A stretch of DNA of 63,628 bases, the filler included, from Collodictyon triciliatum (taxonomy: Eukaryota): NCBI GenBank assembly GCA_043381765.1. It is 12 parts of 12 records of this genome, joined end to end, with 100 filler letters (N's around TTAATTAATTAA, not from the genome) between each part and the next. Parts side by side here need not be neighbours in the genome. Positions count along the whole stretch, not along the records: positions 45,390 to 50,952 come from JBHJMP010005112.1; 11 more parts are not named here. One strand, given 5' to 3'. The translations under genes were made by a program, and so were the position numbers. This document shows positions 1 to 56,687 of the stretch, in pieces. Below the pieces are notes generated by a model. That model was not told the origin of the DNA, did no database searches, and saw nothing but the letters and a program-made list of their open reading frames with translations. Position 1 is the first letter of the stretch. Every line of letters starts with the position of its first letter.

Positions 1-345
1 AAAAAAAAAAAAAAAAAAAAAAAAAAAAGAAACAGAAAAAGAAAAAGAAAAAAAAAAAAAAAAAGAAAAAAAGAAAAAAAGAAAAAAAGAAAAAAAAAGT
101 AATCAGTCAAATGATTTTAATATTCACGTTTCTATTCCAGTGCGTGACCTGTTGGTTTTATGAATCTGGTCATAAGAACAGAGAAATCCCGAAAAGAGGG
201 ATGAGAACCATGTTTTTCAACATATGGCTCAATATTGATTCAAACCTTTAATAGTTAATCTTTCTCAGCAACCAAGAAAGCAACAAAACCTCTCGCTTCT
301 CAGCTTTTCGATACCTTAAGCATACCATACTGACCTGCATCAAGA

Positions 346-3300
346 ATGGACCGCAGAAGAAGGCGATCTTCTATCACGCACAGTGGCCACTGGAAGCCCC
401 TCGACGTTGAATCACTCTCCTACAAAAAACCCGAGAATCCCACCACAAGAGAAGGAAAAATATATGGACCCGTAATATGGCTATGTAAGTCCGGCCTATC
501 GACAGTACCGGAGACCGTAACGAATACACCCGATGTTGTATACTTATTTTTACAAAAAAACGCCATATCTTCCGTCACAGAATCCATCAAGAAATTGGTT
601 GATCTTGAGATCATCGACTTATCATTCAACAAGGTTTCAGAACTGCCTTTTGATTTTTCCAATCTTTCGCGCTTACAAAAAATATGGCTTCGAAATAACC
701 GTATCTCTCACATCCCCGACAGTTTCTCTGTTCTAACTTCCATAGAAGTGCTTGATGCTTCCAATAATCTTATTTCAAAGACCCCCGTTTTCCTCTCAAA
801 CTTGATCAGACTGAAACATCTGAACCTCTCAGCCAACCAGTTATCTACATTACCAGAGAACATAAACTTACACACAGGCATTCTGTCTCTTCAACTTTCT
901 GTGAATAATATTAATCTAGTGCCGAATAGTTTTTCATCCTTGCATTTACTTCAGGTTCTCAATTTGTCCTACAACCGTATTTCCAGCCTTGATCTGATTA
1001 CACCTGGTCTCTCTTCTCTAACCTTGCTGGACATATCGGGTAACCAAGTAGAGCGTTTCATTACACAGGATGTCAACCTACCCTTTCTCAAGGAAATCTA
1101 TGCACCCGATAATCTCATCTCTGACCTGCCTGCCTCGATGTCCCTGGTGACGTCTCTTGTTGTGTTGGACTTATCAAGAAATACGAGACTGTGTGAATTC
1201 AAGGTCAGGACAAAGAACATGAAAGACCTTCGATACTTGAGTCTATCTGACTGCAACCTAAAGAATATCCCCCCTGTACTCACGGAATCCCCACACATTG
1301 GATACTTATTACTTAAAGGCAACGCCATTCAAACTCTGAGCACAAACATCGCCATGATTAAGTCTCTCGAAGAACTGGATCTGTCCTACAACTACATCTC
1401 TCATGTCCCCTCTGACATACAGCAGCTCGCCAAACTAAGAGTTCTCCGACTATCCAGCAACTTTATATCTTCTCTTCCACGATCGATAACTGTCCTAAAG
1501 AACCTCGAGCAGCTCGACTTGCGTGAAAATGCGTTTGACCAAGGGGAGGATATCGTAATGGAGGCATATCTTTGCGACCTGGAAACATTAGACTTGTCCA
1601 ATAGTAATCTAACCCATGTACCAAGACTCATCAGCCAGCTCACAACCATACAAAAGCTGGATCTTTCTCACAATATGATATCGTCCATACCTCCTTTTGT
1701 CTCCAAGCTCTGCAGATTGACCAGTTTGAAGGCCAGCCACAACCAGTTATCCATCTTGCCCGATATCTTTGATGACATGCCATCATTAGTAGACCTGAAC
1801 ATCGACCACAACCCTTTGACACCAGAGGATTTGATGCTTTGGAAAAACATGGATATTCAGTCATGCTCTCTTAAAATCAAAGATTACTCGTTGATCGAAT
1901 TTCCTCAAAACATATCGCGTTATACATTCTTCAGGTCGATCAATCTAACCGGAAATAAAATAACTGCGATTCCAGATTTTTTGAGGCAATTTACCTTGCT
2001 GACTCACCTCGACTTATCTAGAAACTCTATCGGTGACCTACCCGATTTTATGAGTACCCTTCCCTTGAAACACTTTTCTGTAGAGGATAACGGCATGACC
2101 CCAGCCCACACAAAAGCGTGGTATGCTTTTGTATCGAGAAACACGTCACTGGATTTTTCATCTCAAGGACTAGCAGCCATTCCTGATTGCCTATCAAAGG
2201 TAACAACCTTATCGGAACTCGATATCTCCCACAACGAGTTGACACATATCCCTGAGACCATTTTGCCCATGATACACCTTGTCCGATTCTCTGTTCGAAG
2301 TAATCGCATTTCGTCTATTCCTCAGTTCATCACCAATTTGACAAACCTGGTAACCTTCGATATATCTGGCAACGCAATAAGCACTCATGAAGAAATAATG
2401 TGGTCTTGTTGCCTTCAAAAAGGGCTGTTCTTAAACTTGCATGGACAAAACCTACCAACCATGCCAAAGCTGATTGATAAGATGACCCATGTTGTATATC
2501 TAAACCTTGAAAGCAACAAAATAGTGTATCTACCAGATTCAATAAGTCATTTGATTAACCTGGAAGAACTGAATGTTGCTGATAACTTTATCGAGTGGTT
2601 ACCGCATGCACTGGGGAAATTGAAGGGTCTCAAAACTCTAAATCTCAACAATAACGATCTATCAATACACAAAGTCGATAACATCCCAGACGAAATCAAC
2701 CCCAACATCCCAAGTTCTCCCAAAGAAAACGACTCTGCCTTTACTGCATCCTATATCCAGTTCGTCCCACCATCGGTACTTGATACGCGGGGATGCAAAA
2801 TATCTATCCTAGGAAATATGAAGCTCCCGTCTGAGGTCATCCAAACATTCACAAAGTCGTCTAAAAGTGATGTCGATTACATAAAAAAGGCACTAATTAT
2901 TCTGGCTTCCATACGAAGAGTGCGTGACCATGATTCCAGTATAGCTGACGCATACGAAATTGCGGCAGAGCAACAACTAGCATTCCACTCTCATGCAAAC
3001 TCAGAGGCGAGCGAGTCTCTAGATTCTCAGATGCAGTCAATAGCGGACCTTGCTGTTAAGGCAGATGCTGTCCGACTGCTGTCTCCTTCATTTGTAGATG
3101 AGGTGGTCAGTAAAATGTGGAACAACGATGCAAATATGACCGAATATCTCATGAAAACAAAAAGGAAAAGCTCTTGGTGGGATGACGGGTTCTGGATGGG
3201 TTTGGCTTACTTTATCCAAGCGTTGAGAACTGAGTTCCCAAAATTCAGTACATCCCCGGCAGCGAAATTTTACTTGTCCTCCTTTGGCTATGCTATATAT

Positions 3301-5304
3301 CTGCTCTTTTTAACGATATACGTTGTCAATTACAACCAGACATACTCCACTCCTGTCTACTATATGTCCCAAGCTTTAGACAATACATTTGACCCGAGTG
3401 GGGTGACCAATGATTCCGATTTTTGGGATTACATTCACGATGTTTTAATACCCGGGCTATATGAGCCATCTAGGGATTCCAGGTTTTCTAATTCCGATTC
3501 AAAGATATATATCGAGTCTTATTTTAAACTGGCAGGGCAAGTGCAGTTTCGCCAACTGCGAGTGAAGCTGAGAAATTGTGACGCAGGAGCTCTGAATGAT
3601 TTTTATTCACATGCCTTGCCTTCATGCATTCCTCCGTACACTCCAGGCTTTGAGGAAAAATCAGCTTTCGTCACAAAGGATGGTAGCGTATGGGATTACA
3701 AAGAATACTCGGGATCAGCATCATTTATCAGCCCCACCGCAACATCATATCCTGGGAGTGGTTTTATCTACAAAGTCCCTGTAAATAAAACTGAGGGTAT
3801 TCAAAGCATATATAATATGGAAACCTCGGGGTGGATGGATCTGCAAACACGCGTTGTATTCATCGAATTCTTTGTTGTAAACCAAAATACAAACACATTC
3901 ACGCTCGCCCAGCTAATTTTCGAGTTCCTGGCATCTGGGAATGTTGTTGCCTCTAGTAAATATCACATTTTTCCAAACAGTTTTCTCGAGTGGAAATGGG
4001 GACAGACTGGCTCATCATGGGGCAATGCGATGTTTGGAATCCAAGTTGCCCTGATGATATACACGTTGGGATTCATTCTTCACGAAGGCCATCAATTTAT
4101 GGAAGACCCTAAAGACTATTTTGGAAACTTTTGGAACATGTTTGACATATCTCTTATTGTGTTGTTGATATCAATGATTACATCCCACGTGCAAGTCTAT
4201 CAACTTGCTCAAGATTACAATATGTTTGATGCGAACAGTGAGCCATCCACAGAGGATTTTATGTCCCGTATGCAACGGATAACTGTGTACATCTCATATC
4301 AAAAGGACATTTTCGCTGCCCTTTTATTCATGTCATGGGGACGTGTTTTGTTCTATTTTGGTATTCATTCATCCTTCGGTCCCATGCAGCTTGTTGTCAA
4401 ACACATGTTGAAAGATTTGCTTCAATTCCTCATACTCTTGATGGTATTTTTCTGTGCATTCACCACCGCATTTTATGCTGTCTATGGATCTTCTTTAAAA
4501 AATGTGTCCAGTATTCAGTCATCAAGCTATCTGTTGGCAGTGTTTCTCTTTGGGAATAGCGACTTTGACCCTCTTCAGCATGAAAACCCCATCATGGCCC
4601 CGCTCCTGTTTTTTGGATATGGACTTACTTGCTGCATTCTCCTTATGAATTTCCTCATCGCTATACTCACCAGCACATATGACAATATATATCGTGTTTC
4701 TCAAGATAGATACCGCCAACTTTTCACAGCCACCGTGCTGGAATTGATTCAAAGTCCTTTGCCGGTACCCTTCAATGTTTTGTATCCTGTCACATGGGCA
4801 TTACGCCCTCTGTGGGTTATGGCGAAGCCAGTAGGCTTTGAATTCCTTAGGATGTCTGGTGCAGCATGGGAAGACCGCTCAAGGGGTTGGGGTTTTATTT
4901 GGGATAATAAGCAGATGATAGCCTTGCTCGCTCACTTAGACCTCAAAAGCTTAGCGAACTTTTTTAGAGACTACAATGACATATTTGGGACCATATACAT
5001 CACAATCTGGATTGATCATATTGTGTTTGTATCGATGGGGGTTTTATCCTTTCTTGTTCAAGTTCCGTACTTTCTTTTCTCAAATGCAAGGGGTGCCGCG
5101 CACTTTTTGATATATCGAATTAGGTTCAAGAAGTCGAAAGTGCAGTCAAGGAGGCAGCTCCCAGTGAGCATAGATATAGACCTTTTTCAGTTAGTTCTTG
5201 TCCATATAGCGCTTTTTTTATTTCGACTTGTTTATCTTCTTAGCTTTATACCTTGGCTCTTGGTCTTCTCCTTCCGCTTTGTTATCGCCTGGAAAAAGGT
5301 TTGA
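346..5304 (+). CDS. LRR-containing TRP/polycystin-like cation channel; a single long exon, possibly continuing after a GT donor at about 5299
   Basis: 1652-aa ORF. About 770 aa of LxxLxLxxN repeats, then a pre-S1 'SPAAKF', a polycystin TOP domain (RQLRV, YPGSGF, WMDLQTRVVFIEF), 'YFGNFWNMFD', S5-pore-S6 'NFLIAILTSTY' and 'LPVPFN'. Confidence 0.88.
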   Translation: MDRRRRRSSITHSGHWKPLDVESLSYKKPENPTTREGKIYGPVIWLCKSGLSTVPETVTNTPDVVYLFLQKNAISSVTESIKKLVDLEIIDLSFNKVSELPFDFSNLSRLQKIWLRNNRISHIPDSFSVLTSIEVLDASNNLISKTPVFLSNLIRLKHLNLSANQLSTLPENINLHTGILSLQLSVNNINLVPNSFSSLHLLQVLNLSYNRISSLDLITPGLSSLTLLDISGNQVERFITQDVNLPFLKEIYAPDNLISDLPASMSLVTSLVVLDLSRNTRLCEFKVRTKNMKDLRYLSLSDCNLKNIPPVLTESPHIGYLLLKGNAIQTLSTNIAMIKSLEELDLSYNYISHVPSDIQQLAKLRVLRLSSNFISSLPRSITVLKNLEQLDLRENAFDQGEDIVMEAYLCDLETLDLSNSNLTHVPRLISQLTTIQKLDLSHNMISSIPPFVSKLCRLTSLKASHNQLSILPDIFDDMPSLVDLNIDHNPLTPEDLMLWKNMDIQSCSLKIKDYSLIEFPQNISRYTFFRSINLTGNKITAIPDFLRQFTLLTHLDLSRNSIGDLPDFMSTLPLKHFSVEDNGMTPAHTKAWYAFVSRNTSLDFSSQGLAAIPDCLSKVTTLSELDISHNELTHIPETILPMIHLVRFSVRSNRISSIPQFITNLTNLVTFDISGNAISTHEEIMWSCCLQKGLFLNLHGQNLPTMPKLIDKMTHVVYLNLESNKIVYLPDSISHLINLEELNVADNFIEWLPHALGKLKGLKTLNLNNNDLSIHKVDNIPDEINPNIPSSPKENDSAFTASYIQFVPPSVLDTRGCKISILGNMKLPSEVIQTFTKSSKSDVDYIKKALIILASIRRVRDHDSSIADAYEIAAEQQLAFHSHANSEASESLDSQMQSIADLAVKADAVRLLSPSFVDEVVSKMWNNDANMTEYLMKTKRKSSWWDDGFWMGLAYFIQALRTEFPKFSTSPAAKFYLSSFGYAIYLLFLTIYVVNYNQTYSTPVYYMSQALDNTFDPSGVTNDSDFWDYIHDVLIPGLYEPSRDSRFSNSDSKIYIESYFKLAGQVQFRQLRVKLRNCDAGALNDFYSHALPSCIPPYTPGFEEKSAFVTKDGSVWDYKEYSGSASFISPTATSYPGSGFIYKVPVNKTEGIQSIYNMETSGWMDLQTRVVFIEFFVVNQNTNTFTLAQLIFEFLASGNVVASSKYHIFPNSFLEWKWGQTGSSWGNAMFGIQVALMIYTLGFILHEGHQFMEDPKDYFGNFWNMFDISLIVLLISMITSHVQVYQLAQDYNMFDANSEPSTEDFMSRMQRITVYISYQKDIFAALLFMSWGRVLFYFGIHSSFGPMQLVVKHMLKDLLQFLILLMVFFCAFTTAFYAVYGSSLKNVSSIQSSSYLLAVFLFGNSDFDPLQHENPIMAPLLFFGYGLTCCILLMNFLIAILTSTYDNIYRVSQDRYRQLFTATVLELIQSPLPVPFNVLYPVTWALRPLWVMAKPVGFEFLRMSGAAWEDRSRGWGFIWDNKQMIALLAHLDLKSLANFFRDYNDIFGTIYITIWIDHIVFVSMGVLSFLVQVPYFLFSNARGAAHFLIYRIRFKKSKVQSRRQLPVSIDIDLFQLVLVHIALFLFRLVYLLSFIPWLLVFSFRFVIAWKKV

Positions 5305-5578: not shown

Positions 5579-5678
5579 NNNNNNNNNNNNNNNNNNNNNN
5601 NNNNNNNNNNNNNNNNNNNNNNTTAATTAATTAANNNNNNNNNNNNNNNNNNNNNNNNNNNNNNNNNNNNNNNNNNNN
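5579..5678. other. Artificial contig-joining spacer (N44-TTAATTAATTAA-N44); repeated at 11256-11355, 16931-17030, 22604-22703, 28277-28376, 33961-34060, 39626-39725, 45290-45389, 50953-51052, 56565-56664, 62233-62332
   Basis: Identical 100-nt spacer with stop codons in all frames, occurring about every 5.6 kb; genes are truncated at these spacers. Confidence 0.97.
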
Positions 5679-11255: not shown

Positions 11256-11509
11256 NNNNNNNNNNNNNNNNNNNNNNNNNNNNNNNNNNNNNNNNNNNNT
11301 TAATTAATTAANNNNNNNNNNNNNNNNNNNNNNNNNNNNNNNNNNNNNNNNNNNNCCCCCCCCCCCCCCCCCCCCTCTTTTTTTTTTTTTTTTTATTATT
11401 ATTATTGTTATTATTATTCTTTCCTATTTAAATCCAGTTCTTATCCGATAGTAATCCATTTTCTTTTTCATTAAAAAAAATTCTTTTCATTTGTCCTCTT
11501 CGCTCATAG

Positions 11510-45154: not shown

Positions 45155-45725
45155 AATGGCATGAATACGATGCTCCTTTTTTAATCTGCAATCGATTGAT
45201 CTGTGAGACTTGCAACAGTGAAAGTGGCGATAAAGAATAAAAAAGGAAAGAGAAAAGAGAAAAAAGAAAAAAGAAAAGAGAAAAGAGAANNNNNNNNNNN
45301 NNNNNNNNNNNNNNNNNNNNNNNNNNNNNNNNNTTAATTAATTAANNNNNNNNNNNNNNNNNNNNNNNNNNNNNNNNNNNNNNNNNNNNCTGAATTCAAT
45401 GTTTCATATACAAAGGACAAAAAATAGCCTGTATTTCTGCTTTTCACCATTTTGATTTTCTTGCCTTTTGTTGTAATAATATTGTTATGTTGTGGGTAAT
45501 GCGGTAAAATTTTCTTAGTTGGTATGTTGTATGACACTCAATTATGAATAATAATACTCACATAATAATCCTTCGAAATTATCTAAAGAATTGTAATTAA
45601 AGCTAAGTAGTATTGAGAGTTTTTTTTTACTTCATTCATTTCCTAATATTGTTCATAGACCTGAACTTTTCGATTAGACATTCGTATCGACTTCATTCTT
45701 TTGTTGTGTTGAGTTTTTGCCGTTA

Positions 45726-45799
<74 letters not shown>

Positions 45800-47162
45800 T
45801 GAATCTACCAGTGTTTGACAAAATGATACGATATTTTTTGGGAAACAACCGGACTTATTCATAACAGGATAGAACTTTAACATGATTACGTTTTATGTAA
45901 TATTAATATTTATTTTGAAGTAGCTGGTCAAATGATAACAAAGTGTGCATGAAAGGTTCTTGGATTCAATCAAAAGCACTTTTTTTTCGTTTTTCAAAAT
46001 AGTTTTCTATCTTTAGTTTGAATTCACTATATCTCAAAACCAAAATTTATCACCAAGATGTTTCCTTTTTTTTTTCGTTTCAAAGACATGAACAAGTGTT
46101 ACTTTATATACTTCCTCTATTATTTTTTTATTATATCCAAATATATCACCTTATTTCCTTGATATATAGTTATGGAAAAAGGGAAATAACCTATCAATCA
46201 AAACTAAATAATAATGGTAATTTAGGCATTTGAATACCGTCATTTCATTTCTGATATCTTAAAATTTTTTTTTGGAAAAGACTAAGATTTGAAATAGTGC
46301 TTATTGTTACATGATTTTTCAATTTATGAATAAAATATTCGGCTATATTTTTTGAAATGATAGTGAGGAGTTTGGTAATTTACGAAATCAGGTTTATTTG
46401 AATTTTAAAATGAAAAATCAATAAAAAAAAAACTAACATTATGTAACAACATTGATAATTGATAATTCAGTGAGTTATTGCAGCAAACTTTAATATCAAG
46501 CTGATCAAATAGAAATGATGGCTAATTGTAAATTCATATGAATGGTTGATAACATAACGCTATGAACGAATGAAATCCTCGGGTTTTTATTGTTTATTCA
46601 TTGATTTCAGAAATCCAAAAAAAATAAAGGTTACATCATTTATCAATAATGCCTTAGTAAAATAAGACATAGCCAGATTATGAGTATTCAGACTGATTGG
46701 GTTAAGGAGTAAAATCAATTATAATATAGTCGAATGAAGATATAAAACTCAAGTACATAACCAAAAAAAATAAAAAGTGTTACAAACGAATACATTTCTG
46801 CCCACAAAGAAATTTTAGCAGTTGACTACTATTTTAAAGAGGGATGCTGAGTAAATTTATATTTCGAGTATAAAATTTTGTTATTTCATGGAAATTAATG
46901 GAAATATGTTAACTTTAGATATTAACACAGAGTTCATTTCGATGTGGGCAATATTTTGCTTGCTGTTGGGTTTCCATGAAATAAAGTCCTCAGGGACTTA
47001 TTGTATCTGGTTTGTAAAAATTATCAAATTCATAATTTACACATTTTTAATTAATCTAATAATCTTGATAGGAACGGGGTGTCCATGCCTGATGAAAATA
47101 GAAGCATTTTTCGACGCGTTGAACCTTTCGAACCTAAAAAAAGTTCTCTGAAGAAAGCCGCA

Positions 47163-50100
47163 ATGTATGGTTCATATTCAAAAATATTAAAATCAAATTC
47201 AATTGAGCATATTTGCGCTGGATTATATTAATATATCTATCTAGGTTTTCAAAACTGTTTTTTGCATGTGTTGCTATCACTTCCATGATAACACCAGCAT
47301 TTTCCTCACATCCTCATCAAAGGTAATTTAAATACAATTACAAATTAGCTCGAGTTGTTCATTTCAAATAATGAAAGCAGGTGCCAGTACTCCAGAGAAG
47401 AGTTGCTATCGATGAAAGTCGAAGATGCATTCCAAATTCTTTTGAGCTATTATGATGAAACATGTGCATCGTTAAAGGGGAATGAAGAAATTTTTTCAGA
47501 AATGAATATTAGCCAAAAAAGTGAAGAATATTCATATCAAAATAGAATAAAGGCTGAATTGAATAACAAAAGAAAAATCCCCGCTATTGGAGCCGATTTC
47601 TATGAATTAAATCAATTACTAAAAAGCGGCGATGGCAGAAATAATTTTGTGAGAAACGAAGAGAACCGTAATTTGGTGCAGGGTGGTAATAAGACTCAAT
47701 ATGAGCTTCTTGTTCAGCTTTATGATGTCCTGGGCGGAGATGATTGGTTGAAGAACATTGGATGGAGGAATCAAAGCATTCCAATTTGCAAGTGGTACGG
47801 GATATCGTGCCATCAAAGCTGTCTTCTAGAAGAATATAAAGTACTTTATTCAAAAATATTATAAATTTATTGATTTATATCTAAATAATTTTCTTATAGA
47901 AAAACACATGCCCCGTCCTAAAAATCAGAATGTCAAAAAACAATCTTTATGGTGATATTGGAATTGCAGCAGCGATTTTTGAGAGACTTCCATTATTGAA
48001 TTATTTGGACTTGAGTTATAACTCAATTTTCGGAAATCTCCCAAACTTTAATCTTCCAAGTATTTCGTACTTGAACCTTTACGTAAATCGGATGACTGGA
48101 ACAATTCCAGACTTTCAAGGGATGCCGAATATTGAGCATCTTAAAGTTGATGGAAATGTATTAGAGGGCACAATACCTGATTTTTCAGCGATTTCAAGGA
48201 TAGAGAAATTATGGATAGGCATCAGCAATAAGATTACAGGTACTTATTTTAAACAGCATTTATTCTGAAATCTATTAACATATCCATTTTTCTTTATTTA
48301 AGGAACCCTACCTGATTTCTCGGGATTACCAAATGTTCAGATTCTTGTTATTTACGGATGTAAAGTTTACGGTTCGTATGTATTTCTTTGACTTAAGCAT
48401 TATCAAGTTTTAATTTAGATCATTTTAGGAACCATTCCAAACTTTATTGGAATTCCGAGCGTTGAAATAATTACTCTTTACAACAATAAATTAACAGGTA
48501 ATAATTATGATCGTTTCACATATTGTCAAAATACAAACTAACATCAAATATAGGAACCGTTCCTGAATTCAGTGGGATTCCGAATGTTGAAATTATCGAA
48601 TTTTCTAGAAATCTATTGACTGGTAACTCATGATGTTATTTCCTACAATATTCACGAAAGGCTAACTTTTTTTTTTTACAGGAACTATCGCAAACTACAA
48701 TAGCATTCCAATCGTCAAAATAATTGATTTATCTAATAACCTACTAAATGGTCAGTTTCCAAAAATAAAAAATTGCTCATATGTTTTGATTCGGATACTA
48801 ACTTTACATCGCAGGAACGATTCCGAACTTTAGTGGAATACCGAATATTTTATGGATTTATCTTTACAATAATAACTTGACTGGTAATATTTATGATTAT
48901 TTGACATACTGTCAAAGTACAAACTTACTTTTGTTTAGGAAGTATCCCTAATTTTAGCGGAATTCCGAGTGTTAAAATAATATATATCCACAGCAATCGA
49001 TTGATAGGTAAGACTCATAATTGTTTCATAGATTTTACAGCGCTAACTTTCTATCTCAGGTACCGTTCCAAATTTCAGTGGTATCCCGAATTTGAAAGTG
49101 ATTCATATTTCTAGTAATCAACTGAACGGTAAATACTTTTTCATATCCCAGTTTTCGAATAATAGCTAAGTTTTCCTTACAGGAACGGTTCCAAACTTCA
49201 GTGGAATTCCGAATGTTGAGATGATTTCTCTTCCTATCAACCAGATGATAGGTAAATTATATAATCGTTTGATTTCATGGTGATAAATACTGAGTATTCT
49301 GATAGGGACGGTTCCAAACTTCAGTGAAATTCCAATGGCTTTGTGGATTTCTCTAGGATATAACAAATTGATAGGTACATTACATAACTATTTCATATTT
49401 TTTGGCATAATAATAAAATTGTATCACAGGAACGGTGCCAAACTTCAATGGAATTCCGAATATTTTGGGGATAGACCTTTATAACAATCAACTGATAGGT
49501 AACTTATGCACTCTTATCTATGATTGATGAATAAAAATAACCCTATATTACAGGGACAATTCCAGACTTCAGTGGCTTTCCCAAAATTCTGAGGTTATAT
49601 CTTTTTAGCAACCAGCTGAATGGTAAGTTTTATGACTATTTTAAAAATACTCTGTAAAAGCTAACTTTATATTACAGGCACAGTTCCAAATTTTGATAAG
49701 ATACTAAAAGTTAGAAGAATCTACCTTGACATAAATATATTAAATGGTGAGTTTGATACATTTTTCTCTTGTTATTCCTGAAGACTCTCTCATTAGATTT
49801 TAACTATAGGCACAATTCCAAACTTCTCCAAAATAAGGAATTTAGAGGTTTTCTCTGCTTATGAGAATCAGTTAGAGGGGGAAATCCCAGATTTCAAATA
49901 TTGTGAAAACATCAAAGAAATAGTATTGTCTCGAAACAAGCTGACAGGTACATTGCCAGAGTTCAATCTTGAAAATCTTTTTAGATTGGACGTGAGCGAA
50001 AACCAAATCAGTGGCTCAATACCTGAATACTGGAAATTACCTTCAATTAAATACATGGATTTGTCTTGGAACAAATTGAAAGACACAGTCCCTATACGTT

Positions 50101-50952
50101 TTCAGGAATTATCAGAGTTAAAATCGCTTGTCTTATCAAATAATCAATTTTCTGGAACTATGCCTATTTACTTTTGGAATTTGCCAAATTTAGCTACGAT
50201 CGATTTGAGAAACAACACATTTTCAGGAGATGTTGGTATTTTCATTGTTCCATCTTCAAAAGATTATGATTATTCATATGACTATTTCTATGAAAACCTT
50301 TTGCTTGATGATAATAAGCTCTATGGAGAACTAAATTGGAGGATATATAACTTTATAGCTAATGTGAAGACTTTGAGCTTAAAAAACAACAATATCACAA
50401 AGCTTGATGAACTCACAAAATTATTGAAATGGACTTCCTTTGACCTTACTGGCAATCCGATTGTTGGAAGCATTCCTGAATCATATTTTGGGTTTTCAAA
50501 GCTTGAGTATTTGGGATTGAAAAACACATTAATGAATCGTGGGGCAGGTAACTTTCTTCCTGATTTCATGACTTTTACGACATCTTTCAATCTTCAAGAC
50601 TTGACGAAGCTTTACCTTTGTCCTTCGATTATTTCGAAATCTGGTTTGATTGAATTGGATGTTGACTTGAATCCGGAATACTATGAATTTGAATTTTGTA
50701 AATGCTTGCCTGGCTATTTTGGATTCGGAAATAATTGTGTTCGGTGTCCAAGCGGATGCGAATGTCTTGATGGAACGTCTTTGAGATTCTGCCATGCTTC
50801 ACCAAACATTACTGCAGTGAAATCAATAACACCTTGTTCACGACCAGAGTCATGTGATGCATCGATTCCAAAGAAAATTTCGAATTCAAGTGCGACAGTC
50901 GAAATCACAGACCTTTGTCAAGAGGGTTACGAAGGATATGCATGCTCTAAAT
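47163..50952 (+). CDS. Secreted or surface LRR receptor-like protein (signal peptide, LRRNT, plant-type LRRs, Cys-rich region), 3' partial
   Basis: MFSKLFFACVAITSMITPAFS signal-like segment; cap LVQLYDVLGGDDW...ICKWYGISC; LxGxIP LRRs; CKCLPGYFG..CVRCP and CQEGYEGYACS at the contig edge. Confidence 0.88.
48303..49746 (+). repeat. Tandem array of twelve 69-nt LRR exons separated by 52-64-nt phase-1 introns
   Basis: Exons start at 48303, 48429, 48554, 48682, 48815, 48939, 49060, 49183, 49306, 49430, 49554 and 49678; each is AG|69 nt|GT and encodes one 23-aa GT(I/V)PNFSG-type LRR. Confidence 0.92.
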
Positions 50953-51052
50953 NNNNNNNNNNNNNNNNNNNNNNNNNNNNNNNNNNNNNNNNNNNNTTAA
51001 TTAATTAANNNNNNNNNNNNNNNNNNNNNNNNNNNNNNNNNNNNNNNNNNNN

Positions 51053-54000
51053 AAGCTGATGAGCCATTTGAAGTTAATCCATCTTTCAAATGCATCGTCA
51101 TTGCGACTACTCAAGATGCACTTACCAATCCCCCAAGAGGACTTCCGCCTCCGTTTTTGAATAGATTTGAAAAACAGATGTTGAATTCTGCAGTTGTTAT
51201 AGAATCGTTTAAACTTCAAGAATTGAGAGAAACCTTCAGGGTTTGTGATATAAATGAACAATAAAAACATCACTATTTCAAAATGCTATTTTCCTTCTTA
51301 ATATTACATTTTCTAAATATAGGAAAGGGTTAGAGAGCTGGTTCAAAAATGTGGACTAGAAAATGAATCTCTCTCCATTTTCCCAGGAGTGAATGAAGAG
51401 TCTATTGATTCTTTAGTTATTGTAGAATTTTCAAAAGTAAAGGACGCTGAAAAAGAAACTGATGCTAAAGGGGTAAATTTTCCTTTTTCATAAAGCCAAT
51501 TCAAATATATAACTTAAAAAACGTTGATTGAGATACTTACATGACACAGATTGTTAGAGCATGCTACAAATCTCTTGTGAATGTTGCATCTACACCAGAT
51601 ATTGTGATTTGCAAAGGAACAAAGGTAAGCCTCATCCCAGACTATACGGTATGTTATTTAGAGCATCAAAATTTATAATACCTGATTTTTTAAAAGAAGG
51701 CTTCATTCAATTTAGGAGAAAGAATTATATTTTGAAAAACAGGAGCATGACAGTCTATTGAAGTTTATTGAAAAAAAGAGAAGAGGAAATGCAGATTCCC
51801 GCCCAAAATGGGGTCACCTTGTTCAAGTAACCACCAACACTCGACTCCTGACTAATTTACAACTCAGACGTTCGCTGAACCCATTAATGAGCGAGAACCA
51901 AGTATGGATAAATTTGATATAAAGCCTTTCAAACAGCTCTGCATTTTCCTTCTATTTGGTGTTTTTTAGTGGGATGCTATTTTTTGAAAGAAGAATCTAA
52001 TTTTAGGTATCATGTATTGACTTGCATCTACTTGGTTCATCGGATAGACTCGAGGAAAATGTATACACCTTTTTGCAATCAGCCGATGGTGTAGTCCTCT
52101 TCGTAAACTGTGATATGAGCACAATCAGGAATATGAGAGTCAACCATTGCAAATTCATATGTAGTAAGTTGATGGCCGATTGGTTGGAAGATGAAAATGA
52201 TGTTGATAAATATATCATCTTACTTTGTTACTCACCTTCGCAGCCTGGTAATAGAGAGTCCCTTAAAATTGGGTTTGACCCTGTATGGGAAAATGTTTTC
52301 CTGGACTCTCTTCTTGCCTCTACATTTACTCTTTTATCAACTGTTTCACCTTCACTGGATGAAATTATCAAGTCTATATTGGAAGGCGATATTCAAGGCC
52401 TGATACAACATGAATATGTCAACGCCTTGAGCCGACTCGAATATCCTGAAGGATTTGACTTTAAGGAAAAGCTGAATACATCATTACAAATCCTTGGAGA
52501 GATGCAAGTTAGCCAAGCTTTTGGTTCCAAGCTTCACTATCTGATGGCAAAAGAGAAGAAGGGAGGATTTGGGACCGGACTATCAACTATGGCACTCGAT
52601 GTCGCTAAAGATAAAAATATGCTGACTTCATACGGAAGCTTCAGAGATTCCATGATGGCGAAATTGGAGAGGCATATATATGTTTATATTCAAAAGCTTA
52701 TTTTCATCGTTGACCGATACGAAAATATGAATCTTTTGAGCCCAGGCCAAGCCCAAAATAACATAAGGGCTGGATTCCTTCAGTTTATGGAATCTACAGA
52801 CTTTTGGAATGCATCGGCTGAAATTTATGAAGGATACTCAAGAATAGCGACACACCCAGATTTTAGAACTGAATTTCCTTTTAGCTATCTGATCTTTTCA
52901 TTTGTAGAGACTTTTAAAACTCAGGAGTTTGCCTCTCAGCTGGACAAGGACATTTTGAAAGGGTCCGGAAGACTTCAAACACGCTTACAATCTTCTCTTA
53001 GACTTGAGGACATCGACCATGACATGGAACTTGCCTATGTGAAAGATTTCTTATTTTATCACAATCTATCATCCCCTGGGCGGTTGAAACGTCATCAAAC
53101 AGTCAGTGTCAGGATTATTGAGCTCATATCATCCTGCTTTGAGTGCAATGTTTCGTTCGGAGATGTTCATTACATTTATTGGGCATTCGAATCGTGGCTC
53201 AGAAAGCTCATTCTATCTTTATCTCAACTTTCTCAAAGAACCTTGGTGGCTGTGGAGAAAAATTTGACAGAATTTACTCAAGGGCGATTTTCTGAAGTAT
53301 TGGACACTTTATTTAGTGCAATATATACAAACTATATCGGTAATCAAGAAAACAGTACCAGATGGATAATTGAATTTGAAAATGCGATACAATCACTGCA
53401 TGCCATTGGTTTGGGACTTGACTCGCTGAAATCTTATCCAACACAAAGAGCTGGCTCAAAAATAGAGTCTCTCAGACTAAAGCTCAAGAATGCTGCCCTT
53501 TTATTTTCTCTTACTCAACTCGGGACTTCATTGAATATTGTAGAACCATCTGACTTAAATGTCGTTGGGGAGACAATTAACCGTCACTTCGAAGCAGAGA
53601 AAGATTACGAAAACATCGAAAATGTTTTGCATGTCATAAATGCAATCAAATCTGTCGGCTTAAAAGGGGATGAACAGAGAAAGAGAGAATTTAATTTTGA
53701 GTCCATTCAGCTTGTGTTTTTTGACTTGGTTTTACCTAAAGACCAAAGACCAAACCCTGATGTTGTTCAATCTCTGTTGGAGTTTTTCCTTGGTAGAAAG
53801 GGTGAATTTATGGCTTTGATTGGGGACACTCTGAAAGATGACAGCTTTGTCTTTAGTTGTCTCAGCATACTATTTAGACTCCTAGAACAAGGCTTGATTA
53901 CGTATGCAGATGGAATAAACATATTGTTTAAAAGCTATTGTGAGACAAAGTCTTCTGAACTTCTTGATTTGGAGCCCATGGTTTTATATGCTCATGCATA

Positions 54001-56349
54001 TGAAAGGGTAGTATACGAAAATATAACTGATTGGAGTCAGGTAGAAGAACCAGAAAATATCGACGGTGCTCCGTTAGTATCGACGTTGCATCAAATCGCA
54101 TACCTGAAGGCTCGGCTTCATATATATGCTTCGGAATTGGTACACACATTCCAACTGGGCAATACTATGGATACAAAGTCAATCGAAGATGTATGCAACC
54201 TATTGGAACGCTTCCCTGAGTTGACCATGAATGGAGTCTGCTACTTGGTTAAATGTGTTGAAATGAATGTTGGAACTATGGTTGCTTACGATTACCTCAC
54301 AAAGAAGAGCCTTGGTCAAATAAGGACATGGTTCTTGAGATTTATTGGAACAGAACACACAGATAACCAAGCAACCCTGAACGTGCTTCCTTTACATCTA
54401 AAATCTTCTGTAGAAACTGTCAATATTATTTCCTCAATTTCGAGACTGATAATTGAAATCGGTAAAGGCTCAGCAGAAGCGAAGGCAGGTTTTGGAAAAA
54501 TAAAAGCTGAGAGAAAGATACCTGGTCTGTCATTCCCTCTGATTTTCTCAGGAGCACTTTTTGAAATCAAATTCAATGTAACCCACGCGATGCTTTCATC
54601 AATACTATCTGTTTTCAAAGAGGAAATTAGATTAAATACTGTCGAGGAAAAAATCGTCGCCAATCTCTTATGCCCTCCTCAGACTATTTCTTCGTATCAA
54701 CTCCTTCAATCTCCCGCCGATATCGGTCTTGACACAAACTTCAAGATATCATTCGTTGTTCGCTATCTTTTGCTTAGCTTGACTAAGGCAGAATGGCCAT
54801 TGAGGGTTATATTCTCGAAGCCGCGGGAATCCCAAAACTTGTTCATTCCGACCATGCCGGACGACCCAAGAAAGATCGAAATCAGTAAGTTTGTCCTGTA
54901 TTCGCATTTTCTATGTACAAAGTAAAGTTATTTGTCCTAACCACTGAATGATTAGCCAAAATGATAAATGCCGGATTGGGAGCATATTTGTGTGATAATG
55001 GTCACCTTTATGAAATACCTCCGTGTACCTGGCCTGTGGAAATCGGAAAATGTGTTAATTGTACAGCCAAGATTGGTGGATTAAATCATATTGCGGTAGC
55101 TCAATTATATTCAAAATCGCAATATTTTTGATTGACATGTTAAATTTTATGAAGGATAAGCAACAAACCCGCCATATATTTAATTATATAGGTACCAGGA
55201 AATGTTCGTGTGTTTATCGATGCCAACGGTCAGATAAAGCCAAATGAATCCAGGTTGGCTCCTATTATTCTTATTTTAATACATATATACTAACTTTCAC
55301 ATGGATGTATTTAAATTAGGGCAAAAACGAGATATTTGAAGGATGTCATTGAATATACGCCAAAAGGATACGAGGTATCAGACTAATGATTAAATGATTA
55401 GACTTTTTCTGTAATTTTTAGAATGAATAACATTAACTAATTTATACAGCCCGTCACCAGTCATGACGCAATGACCGAGAGAAATATGAATCAAAGGCAC
55501 TACCGAGTGCTTAGGATTCTTATTCATACGTCGTATATCCTATCATCCATCAGCGAAAATGCAGATGTTTGTTTAACTACATATTTGATGAATATCAATA
55601 TAATACATATATATGGATTATTATTATTTGCTCTTATAAACCTCCATTTAATGAATTTAGTTTTCTAAAATCCCTGAACAACCGGCCCACGAGTTCTTTT
55701 GGAGAAATTATTCAAGCGATTGGGAATTTTTGAAGACGTCCCTCAATCTTAATGACCAACAATTATTTTATGCGCTCATAGGACTACTGGATACTCTATC
55801 AGGTTTTTTTCCCTATGCTATATGAAGAGAAGAAAAAAACCATCCTAGTACCCATTTGAAAACTATTAATGCCTTATTGAATTTAAAGACTGGTGCAAAA
55901 TACTAAATATTAATGAACTTCCAGAATCTCAATTACCTCCAGCCTCCTTGTCAACGATTGAGGGAAGAGACAAGTGGGAAAGGGATATTTCTGGTGTAGT
56001 GAACGGATGGTTTGGTAGAATCTCGTCGATTGTGGCCACAAAGGTACATAAACTTTGAATAATATTTATTTAAGTGTATCTTAACAAGAACTAAAACTCA
56101 AAAAAAAAAATAGGCAAAAGAAGCTGAAGTGGAGGCTGGCGTCAATTTTTTGGAAAGGAAAATCACAGAAACATACGACAAGGGAAAGGAAGAATCCCGC
56201 GCGATTTTCATGCCCTGTTTATTCAATCCCATGGTTAAGGTCACTAAAAGATTAGTGGTCACTTCGTTTGTATCTGAAGAGTCCAATAAGAGAAAGGCAC
56301 ACTTAATTGATGTGATATTCAGTCACCTTGAAAAGATAAAGCCTTTGAG
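51053..56349 (+). CDS. RNF213 (mysterin)-like AAA+/E3 ligase, internal fragment including the RZ zinc finger
   Basis: VNPSFKCIVIA...PPPFLNRFEKQ (AAA end); FPFSYLI; FIPTMPDD; exon 54956-55095 CDNGH..IPPC..C..C..IGGLNH; YRVLRILIH. Confidence 0.82.
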
Positions 56350-56687
56350 GTATGACATCCATTGTGACATATATTTATCTTTGTTTTTCTTTTTTCGTTT
56401 TCTTTGTTTTCTTTGTTTTCTTTTCTTTTCTTTTTTTCTTTTTTCTTTTTCTTTTCTTTTTCTTTTCTTTTTCTTTTCTTTTTCTTTTCTTTTTCTTTGT
56501 TCATTTTCTTTTTTTTTGTTTTCTTTTTTTTTTGTTATCTTTTTTGTTTTCTTTTCTTTTTTTTNNNNNNNNNNNNNNNNNNNNNNNNNNNNNNNNNNNN
56601 NNNNNNNNTTAATTAATTAANNNNNNNNNNNNNNNNNNNNNNNNNNNNNNNNNNNNNNNNNNNNAAAAAAAAAAAAAANNNNNNNNN

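Follow-up and report, generated by a model that had tools for sequence, protein, structure and literature searches.

An array of twelve equal, single-repeat exons in a predicted leucine-rich-repeat receptor gene of Collodictyon triciliatum

One exon per leucine-rich repeat (LRR) is the arrangement of ERECTA-type plant LRR genes. The ROCO genes of Ectocarpus and other brown algae likewise place one LRR in each 72-nucleotide (nt) exon, and exon shuffling, diversifying selection and several splice variants are reported for them (PMC3341825, PMC11378527). In Tetrahymena, LRR exons of exactly 90 base pairs (bp) with phase-2 introns have been read as the product of clonal exon-plus-intron expansion by unequal crossing-over (PMC6564038). 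Human gene families, too, have been reported to contain exon-modular LRRs (PMC6642158), and one of the brown-algal reports mentions those of the gonadotropin receptors (PMC11378527). Here, we describe an array of twelve 69-nt LRR exons in a gene of the free-living protist Collodictyon triciliatum. The DNA analysed (‘the window’) is a 63,628-nt stretch of assembly GCA_043381765.1 made of joined pieces, and the gene lies in the piece from 45390 to 50952 (JBHJMP010005112.1), with 1.9 kilobases (kb) visible 5' of the gene and its 3' part beyond 50952, outside the window. The array is of the same kind as those of Ectocarpus and Tetrahymena but stands outside those families by exon length, phase, architecture and lineage. 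We consider it probable that these exons form part of the ectodomain of an ordinary, germline-encoded membrane-receptor gene that is constitutively spliced, and that the array is a relic of tandem exon duplication.

The resemblance to the brown-algal ROCO arrays takes in one LRR per exon, equal and symmetric exons, a plant-like G..P…LxxLxLxxNxL repeat, variation on the concave face and exon duplication. There are several differences. First, our exons are 69 nt long and phase 1, whereas those of ROCO genes are given as 72 nt and phase 2 (PMC11378527). Second, ROCO proteins are cytosolic LRR-ROC-COR GTPases, whereas the gene in the window would encode an extracellular receptor with a cysteine-rich (Cys-rich) module after its LRRs. 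Finally, the array introns in the window are free of the non-coding or reversed LRR exons of ROCO genes. With Tetrahymena the array shares a protist setting, exactly equal LRR exons and a uniform intron phase; it differs in its 69-nt, phase-1 exons, in belonging to another supergroup and in scale, with tens of thousands of exons reported there against one array plus hints of paralogues here. Compared with plant LRR receptor-like kinases and receptor-like proteins, the gene has a similar GxIP-bearing LRR consensus and likely a similarly static multi-exon ectodomain. By contrast, its repeats are 23 rather than 24 amino acids (aa) long, its homologues in Diphylleia rotans lack a kinase, and a Cys-rich module and multi-pass domain replace the helix and kinase. 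Lamprey variable lymphocyte receptors (VLRs) and insect Dscam have in common with the array only the idea of combining repeated modules for receptor diversity, whereas the germline gene in the window is complete, with neither a flanking cassette reservoir in the 5.6-kb piece nor docking or selector elements to be seen, and shows no sign of mutually exclusive or somatic choice.

A search for AG, 69 nt of open frame and GT returned exactly 12 exons at 48303-49746 (Table 1), with the same coordinates as in a preliminary description of this DNA, which had noticed twelve consecutive 69-nt, phase 1-1 exons of one LRR each. In all 12, the first two bases finish a Gly codon whose first base is the final G of the preceding exon, and each exon encodes a single 23-aa LRR of the form G-T-[IV]-P-N-F-S-G-I-P-N-[VI]-x-x-I-x-L-x-x-N-x-L-x. 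The seven-residue strings quoted in that description as differing between exons on a conserved scaffold, from QILVIYG to RRIYLDI, had all been read correctly. Together with the flanking exons, the 69-nt exons make a single continuous frame of 936 codons up to 50952, where the gene is interrupted because the window consists of joined pieces of ~5.6 kb and a linker falls there. The resulting gene model has 16 exons, is open throughout, has GT..AG borders at 15 of 15 introns and shows a G+C content of 0.353 in exons versus 0.253 in introns. Its true start probably lies further 5' than the ATG at 47285, as a hydrophobic stretch resembling a signal-peptide core lies just 5' of this codon in the same frame.

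The 13 introns of the array, all 52-64 nt long and phase 1, split one and the same Gly codon of the repeat, and those before the first and after the twelfth 69-nt exon occupy the same repeat position as those between. None of the 13 permits in-frame read-through, as nine contain an in-frame stop and four have lengths that are not multiples of three. The two introns of the gene outside the array (58 and 59 nt) are just as short. A repeat search recovered 14 copies of a conserved 56-nt core, 121-133 nt apart inside the array, and a degenerate two-unit pattern matched twice in the window but never in 100 shuffles; Tandem Repeats Finder reported no array in 47000-51000, because the units are too diverged. 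The neighbouring LRRs sit in long multi-LRR exons, 340 nt upstream and at least 1143 nt downstream, as previously described. The earlier statement that any of the exons can go or be added without a frameshift also holds, as equal-length, symmetric phase 1-1 exons have this property.

The protein encoded by this gene belongs to a family otherwise seen in Diphylleia rotans. In Pfam comparisons, the last exon in the window matches LRR_4 (76.8 bits; cut-off 27), LRR_1 (61.4; 20.6) and LRR_8 (62.8; 27), and exon 3 matches LRR_8 (37.1; 27); the N-terminal cap contains the motif CKWYGISC but resembles LRRNT_2 (PF08263) weakly, at 17.7 bits against a cut-off of 20.7. The plant-specific LRR consensus, LxxLxLxxNxLxGxIPxxLxxLxx, has 24 residues; the GxIP-bearing repeat in our gene has 23, falling one residue short in the variable segment. 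Plant LRR kinases and many metagenome LRR proteins match the last exon (380 aa) at 26-36% identity. The best database matches, however, are all EukProt transcripts of D. rotans, at 34-44% identity over the full length of the exon. Four D. rotans proteins are colinear with it over 380 columns (35-44% identity) that cover the C-terminal LRRs, an irregular island and the Cys-rich module, with 12 cysteines among the invariant columns. An exhaustive HMMER search added eight further D. rotans clusters with full-span colinear matches; phmmer E-values of full-span matches are 1e-118 to 1e-134, and the family in this species has at least 12 expressed gene clusters.

Full-length D. rotans members consist of a signal peptide, an N-terminal domain, a cap, 23-aa GxIPxF repeats, the Cys-rich module and about eight C-terminal hydrophobic helices; in one of them (P0005), the signal peptide precedes a conserved C.Y..ELLSMK.EDAF motif. 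A Pfam scan of four full-length homologues found no kinase and no Roc/COR domain. Two metagenome fragments also match the full span colinearly, P0170 at 49% and P0221 at 60% identity, and both run past the position equivalent to the window's 50952 end into C-x-x-GYG-x-QGR-x-C and then a hydrophobic helix; the frame of P0170 opens 8 residues ahead of GTIPSF, the same exon start as 49810. We infer that the multi-pass membrane domain of the window gene lies beyond 50952. The colinear homology to D. rotans proteins with a signal peptide, LRRs, the Cys-rich module and a membrane domain supports the proposal, already made in the preliminary description, that the gene encodes a protist surface receptor. 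As a family combining LRRs, a Cys-rich module and a multi-pass membrane domain, it is uncharacterised.

Two other features of the family were observed. D. rotans P0129/P0005 carries a nidogen-like NIDO domain (PF06119, 1.7e-32) ahead of the LRRs and, because one member has this domain there, the N-terminal part of the family is modular. For the membrane domain, an AlphaFold2 (AF2) model of D. rotans P0301 from a 14-row alignment (predicted local distance difference test, pLDDT, 75; predicted template-modelling score, pTM, 0.70) had no Foldseek match in the PDB at E <= 0.001. In VIA-align, pannexin, Hrd1 and helical bundles were matched over 80-181 residues with a Z no higher than 8.5; we assign no fold, because this value lies within the common range for helical models. 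An ESM Atlas feature search with the membrane domain returned unnamed eukaryotic clusters, in some of which PF06011 (TRP) annotates 12-13% of members and, in some, Ephrin_rec_like annotates 48-78%, both of which are leads only.

How did the array arise? The 66 pairs of array units have a mean amino-acid identity of 0.50, against 0.30 for 96 pairings with flanking LRRs and 0.28 for 744 pairings with the 62 LRR units of four D. rotans proteins. The nearest relative of a unit lies within the array for 10 of the 12, the other two being ties, and the signature …SGIPN… is exclusive to the 12 array units among the LRRs compared. Because the units are closer to each other than to flanking or Diphylleia LRRs and have a signature of their own, we conclude from these comparisons that all 12 arose in this lineage by multiplication of a single founder unit, although gene conversion that homogenised the units would leave the same pattern. 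The probable scheme starts from one exon-plus-intron unit of ~124 nt, bearing …NFSGIPN…, which would have been duplicated in tandem, most likely by unequal recombination, to give twelve exons. That such exon-plus-intron units were duplicated, as the preliminary description proposed, is borne out by the shared intron position and phase, by one alignable intron pair and by the mutual closeness of the array units.

The introns themselves tell less than had been supposed. The pair singled out in the preliminary description as evidence that the introns are homologous, 48498-48553 and 48884-48938, does align and is clearly homologous: it scores 29, whereas none of 2000 shuffles exceeded 18, and 38 of the 46 bases compared at the 5' end agree. 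The 13 array introns form 78 pairs, of which only two reach a score of 17; 17 pairs reach 11, where 5.3 are expected, and yet the mean score of array-intron pairs, 7.73, is not above that of the two non-array introns against array introns (7.58; maximum 14). Because these means do not differ, the excess mostly reflects base composition and splice signals that the introns have in common. It is thus their identical position and phase that suggest homology for the whole set of introns; their sequence does not show it.

Most of the duplications are old, since synonymous sites are saturated (the pooled proportion of synonymous differences, pS, between units is 0.69-0.78) and the exon identity matrix shows no block pattern. 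Duplication in blocks, for example of units 2-4 copied to 5-7, was considered and finds no support in this matrix. Units 2 and 5 represent one younger event: their introns differ at 8 of 46 bases (17%), the scaffold pS is 0.36, and the proportion of nonsynonymous differences (pN) at the x positions is 0.42. These values, which involve only eight x-position codons, hint that the exposed residues of this pair diverged quickly after duplication; the exposed beta-strand residues would then have changed faster than either scaffold or intron.

The wider family indicates where in the protein this growth took place. Motifs for the cap, the island and the Cys-rich module allowed the spacing of these parts to be measured in 4 of 13 proteins. 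Between cap and island lie 421, 449, 542 (the window gene) and 735 aa, a ~1.7-fold range, whereas island and Cys-rich module stay a constant 155-161 aa apart. Because only the first of these distances varies, the array sits in the length-variable block of the family, and the tandem duplications would have lengthened this N-terminal LRR block.

The preliminary description also presented the exons as varying at the binding face. Across the 12 units, per-position entropy is at most 1.6 bits at V12, I15, L17, N20 and L22 and rises to 2.1-2.6 bits at positions 13, 14, 16, 18, 19 and 21. The high-entropy positions are the x positions of LxxLxLxxN, with the structural L/I/V/N/G/P positions conserved, and this variation is therefore the ordinary x-position variability of any LRR and not a special feature of the array. 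Between units, pN/pS is 0.29 for the scaffold and 0.64 for the x positions, below 1 in both partitions, but says little about positive selection because pS is saturated.

Taken as constitutively spliced, the twelve exons would all be included by intron definition across very short introns. The mature ectodomain would then comprise the N-terminal domain, the LRRNT-like cap, about 23 LRRs of the 23-residue plant-like type (LxxLxLxxNxLxGxIPxF…), the island, a few further LRRs and the Cys-rich module, forming one long LRR solenoid whose concave face, lined by the x positions of xxLxLxx, could bind ligand. The isoforms of D. rotans are consistent with static use. Across the 12 family clusters in that species, none of 47 isoform proteins shows an in-frame difference of an LRR cassette (18 compared by alignment and 22 against 7 references by BLAST; P0130, P0137 and, from one cluster, the bacterial and unnamed members of 54-55 aa were excluded). 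Internal gaps among isoforms measure 1, 5 and 13 aa, none of them repeat-sized (the 13-aa gap was not located), and the remaining differences are alternative C-terminal tails and N-terminal truncations. Isoforms of three D. rotans genes diverge exactly at the repeat Gly, at four LRR junctions in all, and stop within 7-21 residues, or have an unrelated head. From their position, these tails seem to be phase-1 introns retained in the Gly codon, and the alternative events look like retentions rather than skips. Because the divergence falls exactly at this Gly, the intron position also seems to be common to the window gene and D. rotans.

Several points weigh against constitutive splicing of a static array. 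The inclusion of all 12 exons is inferred, for a gene model that stops short of the 3' end and probably of the true 5' start. The D. rotans isoforms are short-read Trinity proteins clustered at 90% identity, in which repeats collapse and skipping isoforms could be missed. Paralogous arrays exist, to judge from metagenome contigs, and could be evolving fast. Elsewhere, the symmetric, equal-length LRR exons of Ectocarpus ROCO genes (PMC11378527) and the exon-modular LRRs of human NLRP3 (PMC6642158) are reported to be alternatively spliced. On balance, an ERECTA-like static structure is the more likely state of the array gene.

The alternative that survives best, although we consider it unlikely, is shuffling in the germline, in which frequent ectopic recombination would exchange, add and remove units among paralogous 69-nt arrays, as has been proposed for Ectocarpus ROCO and Tetrahymena LRR genes, and so generate diversity at the population level. 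Among sequencing runs, no RNA run but eight metagenome runs contain part of the sequence (at most 0.10 of the sequence words in each). Four of these metagenome runs, aligned to the locus, yielded contigs of 145-355 nt that are either exact or paralogue-like, none extending beyond two units; the exact pieces come from freshwater and subsurface runs. The paralogue-like contigs match only the conserved 41-nt core of the unit, with 1-4 mismatches, and then continue into other beta-strand codons; in some, AT-rich intron-like sequence with CTAAC lies next to the core, and two join unit-like pieces at the 124-nt exon-to-exon spacing of the array. Further arrays with such units thus appear to exist, in this organism or in close relatives. 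High turnover would also fit the ~1.7-fold variation in LRR-block length, the excess of x-position pN (0.42) over intron divergence (17%) in units 2 and 5 and the expression of at least 12 family clusters in D. rotans. By contrast, the units are old, with saturated pS and 76 of 78 intron pairs scoring below 17, the identity matrix lacks blocks, and the introns contain no stray or reversed LRR exons. The metagenome pieces, moreover, are ~150-270 nt long and 90-95% alike over ~40 nt; they could belong to other species, and exchange cannot be read from them. A metagenome search with the family alignment gave 89 pattern matches, none of which was confirmed by tblastn.

Less probable still is combinatorial splicing, in which the 69-nt exons would be skipped in varying sets to give receptors with different numbers and sets of LRRs. 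Any subset of the 12 symmetric, equal exons keeps the frame, the 72-bp LRR exons of Ectocarpus ROCO are credited with up to nine splice variants (PMC11378527), and NLRP3 provides a precedent for alternative splicing of exon-modular LRRs (PMC6642158). Nevertheless, short introns are typically recognised by intron definition, failures of which lead to retention rather than skipping (PMC6142364), and the 52-64-nt introns of the array would favour this mode. The junction differences among the D. rotans isoforms resemble frame-ending retained introns, and no repeat-sized gap was found in the 47. Loss of an LRR from mid-solenoid would alter the whole binding surface, and few subsets would be expected to function. 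Mutually exclusive exon clusters of the Dscam kind have a docking site and selector sequences able to pair with it. We found no conserved intronic element and no convincing docking/selector-like complementarity at the array, where 17 weak, AT-rich inverted pairs do not recur before each exon and the strongest inverted repeats, also rich in AT, span no more than 28 nt with 71-92% complementarity. Given the D. rotans isoforms, the missing docking/selector pairing and the usual character of the x-position variability, the combinatorial recognition system proposed in the preliminary description is not supported; such use is unproven and, on the indirect evidence, disfavoured.

A broader version of this idea, which we regard as distinctly improbable, is that collodictyonid-like predatory flagellates use the 69-nt exon arrays of this receptor family combinatorially, through regulated skipping or recombination between paralogues, to build a repertoire for recognising prey or self. 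If true, it would constitute an LRR-cassette diversity system in the deep-branching CRuMs, independent of VLRs and of brown-algal ROCO. VLR germline genes are incomplete, without an LRR core, and are flanked by donor cassettes; in the window gene, outside which the 5.6-kb piece (including the 1.9 kb visible upstream) contains no stray LRR units, only the cassette-like look of the array speaks for somatic VLR-like assembly or for a pseudogenised or mis-modelled repeat region, and both are very improbable given a germline gene open across all 16 modelled exons, in which each of the 15 introns has canonical splice sites, conservation of coding sequence is restricted to the 69-nt segments and the product is homologous and colinear to D. 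rotans proteins that are expressed. Four metagenome runs, moreover, contain short exact stretches of the locus without rearrangement.

Read as a relic of tandem exon duplication in a constitutively spliced gene, the array by itself shows no new diversity-generating mechanism. It does add an independent case of equal, symmetric one-LRR exons, this time in a family of extracellular receptors from a deep-branching and little-sampled group of eukaryotes near Diphylleia, and it illustrates that tandem duplication of exon plus intron recurs as a route to longer LRR ectodomains. More broadly, the gene points to an uncharacterised, expanded receptor family with a possible role in sensing prey or the environment in phagotrophic protists.

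The repeat subtype also has a life outside this family. A two-unit DNA pattern, applied to metagenome contigs of the Joint Genome Institute (JGI), matched 24 loci (L001-L024), and from this set the 23-residue GTIPNF LRR subtype is widespread. In 20 of the 24, the distance between GTIPNF units is a multiple of 66 or 69 nt, which leaves no introns between them, and all eight loci that were translated are long, uninterrupted open reading frames (ORFs). Four loci (L004, L014, L018 and L008), which are probably bacterial, encode very long intronless proteins with an LRRNT-like cap (…C.W.G[IV].C…) followed by 3-20 near-identical 23-aa GTIPNF repeats, a module that is reiterated several times along one chain. 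The metagenome arrays, as a set probably bacterial, thus share with ours the 23-residue G-T-I-P-N/D-F repeat and the LRRNT-like cap, but they are intronless and far more uniform and lack the Cys-rich and membrane parts of the protist family. L005, L017, L020 and L021 were considered as intron-bearing relatives on account of their 126-nt spacing and set aside, because what they contain is an unrelated repeat in two copies; neither of two scans of JGI metagenome contigs yielded a relative with introns.

Table 1. Features of the receptor gene and its exon array, in window coordinates.
Feature	Position	Strand	Remarks
Provisional first coding exon	47285..47322	+	ATG at 47285; donor AG|GTAATT
Exon 2: N-terminal domain and LRRNT-like cap (…CKWYGISC…)	47381..47840	+	Pfam LRRNT_2 weak
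Exon 3: ~4.5 LRRs	47900..48239	+	340 nt; ends at the Gly-codon position of the array
69-nt LRR exon 1	48303..48371	+	GTLPDFSGLPNVQILVIYGCKVY
69-nt LRR exon 2	48429..48497	+	GTIPNFIGIPSVEIITLYNNKLT
69-nt LRR exon 3	48554..48622	+	
69-nt LRR exon 4	48682..48750	+	
69-nt LRR exon 5	48815..48883	+	73% nt identity with exon 2
69-nt LRR exon 6	48939..49007	+	
69-nt LRR exon 7	49060..49128	+	
69-nt LRR exon 8	49183..49251	+	5' core 49177-49217 matched by paralogous metagenome contigs
69-nt LRR exon 9	49306..49374	+	
69-nt LRR exon 10	49430..49498	+	
69-nt LRR exon 11	49554..49622	+	
69-nt LRR exon 12	49678..49746	+	
Last exon in window: ~9 LRRs, irregular island (FSGDVGIFIVPSS…; FSGDV…), Cys-rich module (CKCLPGYFGFGNNCVRCPSGCEC…)	49810..50952	+	1143 nt; ends at linker
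Span of the 13 array introns	48240..49809	+	Phase 1, 52-64 nt
Array introns 1-7	48240-48302, 48372-48428, 48498-48553, 48623-48681, 48751-48814, 48884-48938, 49008-49059	+	
Array introns 8-13	49129-49182, 49252-49305, 49375-49429, 49499-49553, 49623-49677, 49747-49809	+	
Sole clearly alignable array-intron pair	48498..48553 and 48884..48938	+	

Other pieces of the window contain two further LRR-encoding frames, both of another LRR type than the receptor. An intronless ORF of 1656 codons at 334-5304 (+) matches PF20519 (3.5e-25) and PF08016 (6.7e-21); its LRRs, of a different, intracellular type, are fused to polycystin and PKD cation-channel domains, which identifies the product as a channel, and it is 22% identical to the receptor model. 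An ORF at 26725-27456 (-) matches Pfam LRR_14, LRR_4 and LRR_8 and was not detected by tblastn with the receptor model, and is therefore not a close paralogue of the receptor. It shares its piece with a TM9SF/EMP70 gene of several exons at 23322-25860 (+), the C-terminal piece of which is 79% identical to D. rotans, other matches reaching at most 69%. Provided that the pieces belong to one genome, this gene is the clearest pointer to kinship with Diphylleia (Collodictyonidae, CRuMs).

The remaining observations concern the rest of the window and its assembly. A frame of 1774 codons at 34348-39669 (-), running into a linker, encodes many WD40 and then many Sel1 repeats; an ORF of 972 codons at 52007-54925 (+) has no Pfam match; and coding sequence at 51053-51240 (+), at the start of a piece, reads …PPFLNRFEKQ…. 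The pieces, of ~5.57 kb, are joined by 11 linkers (5579-5678, 11256-11355, 16931-17030 and so on), each consisting of N44, TTAATTAATTAA and N44, and further runs of N occur at 14346-14465 (N120) and 56679-56687 (N9). Finally, a poly-T tract of ~70 nt lies at 45713-45815 (+), 1.5 kb upstream of the receptor gene.

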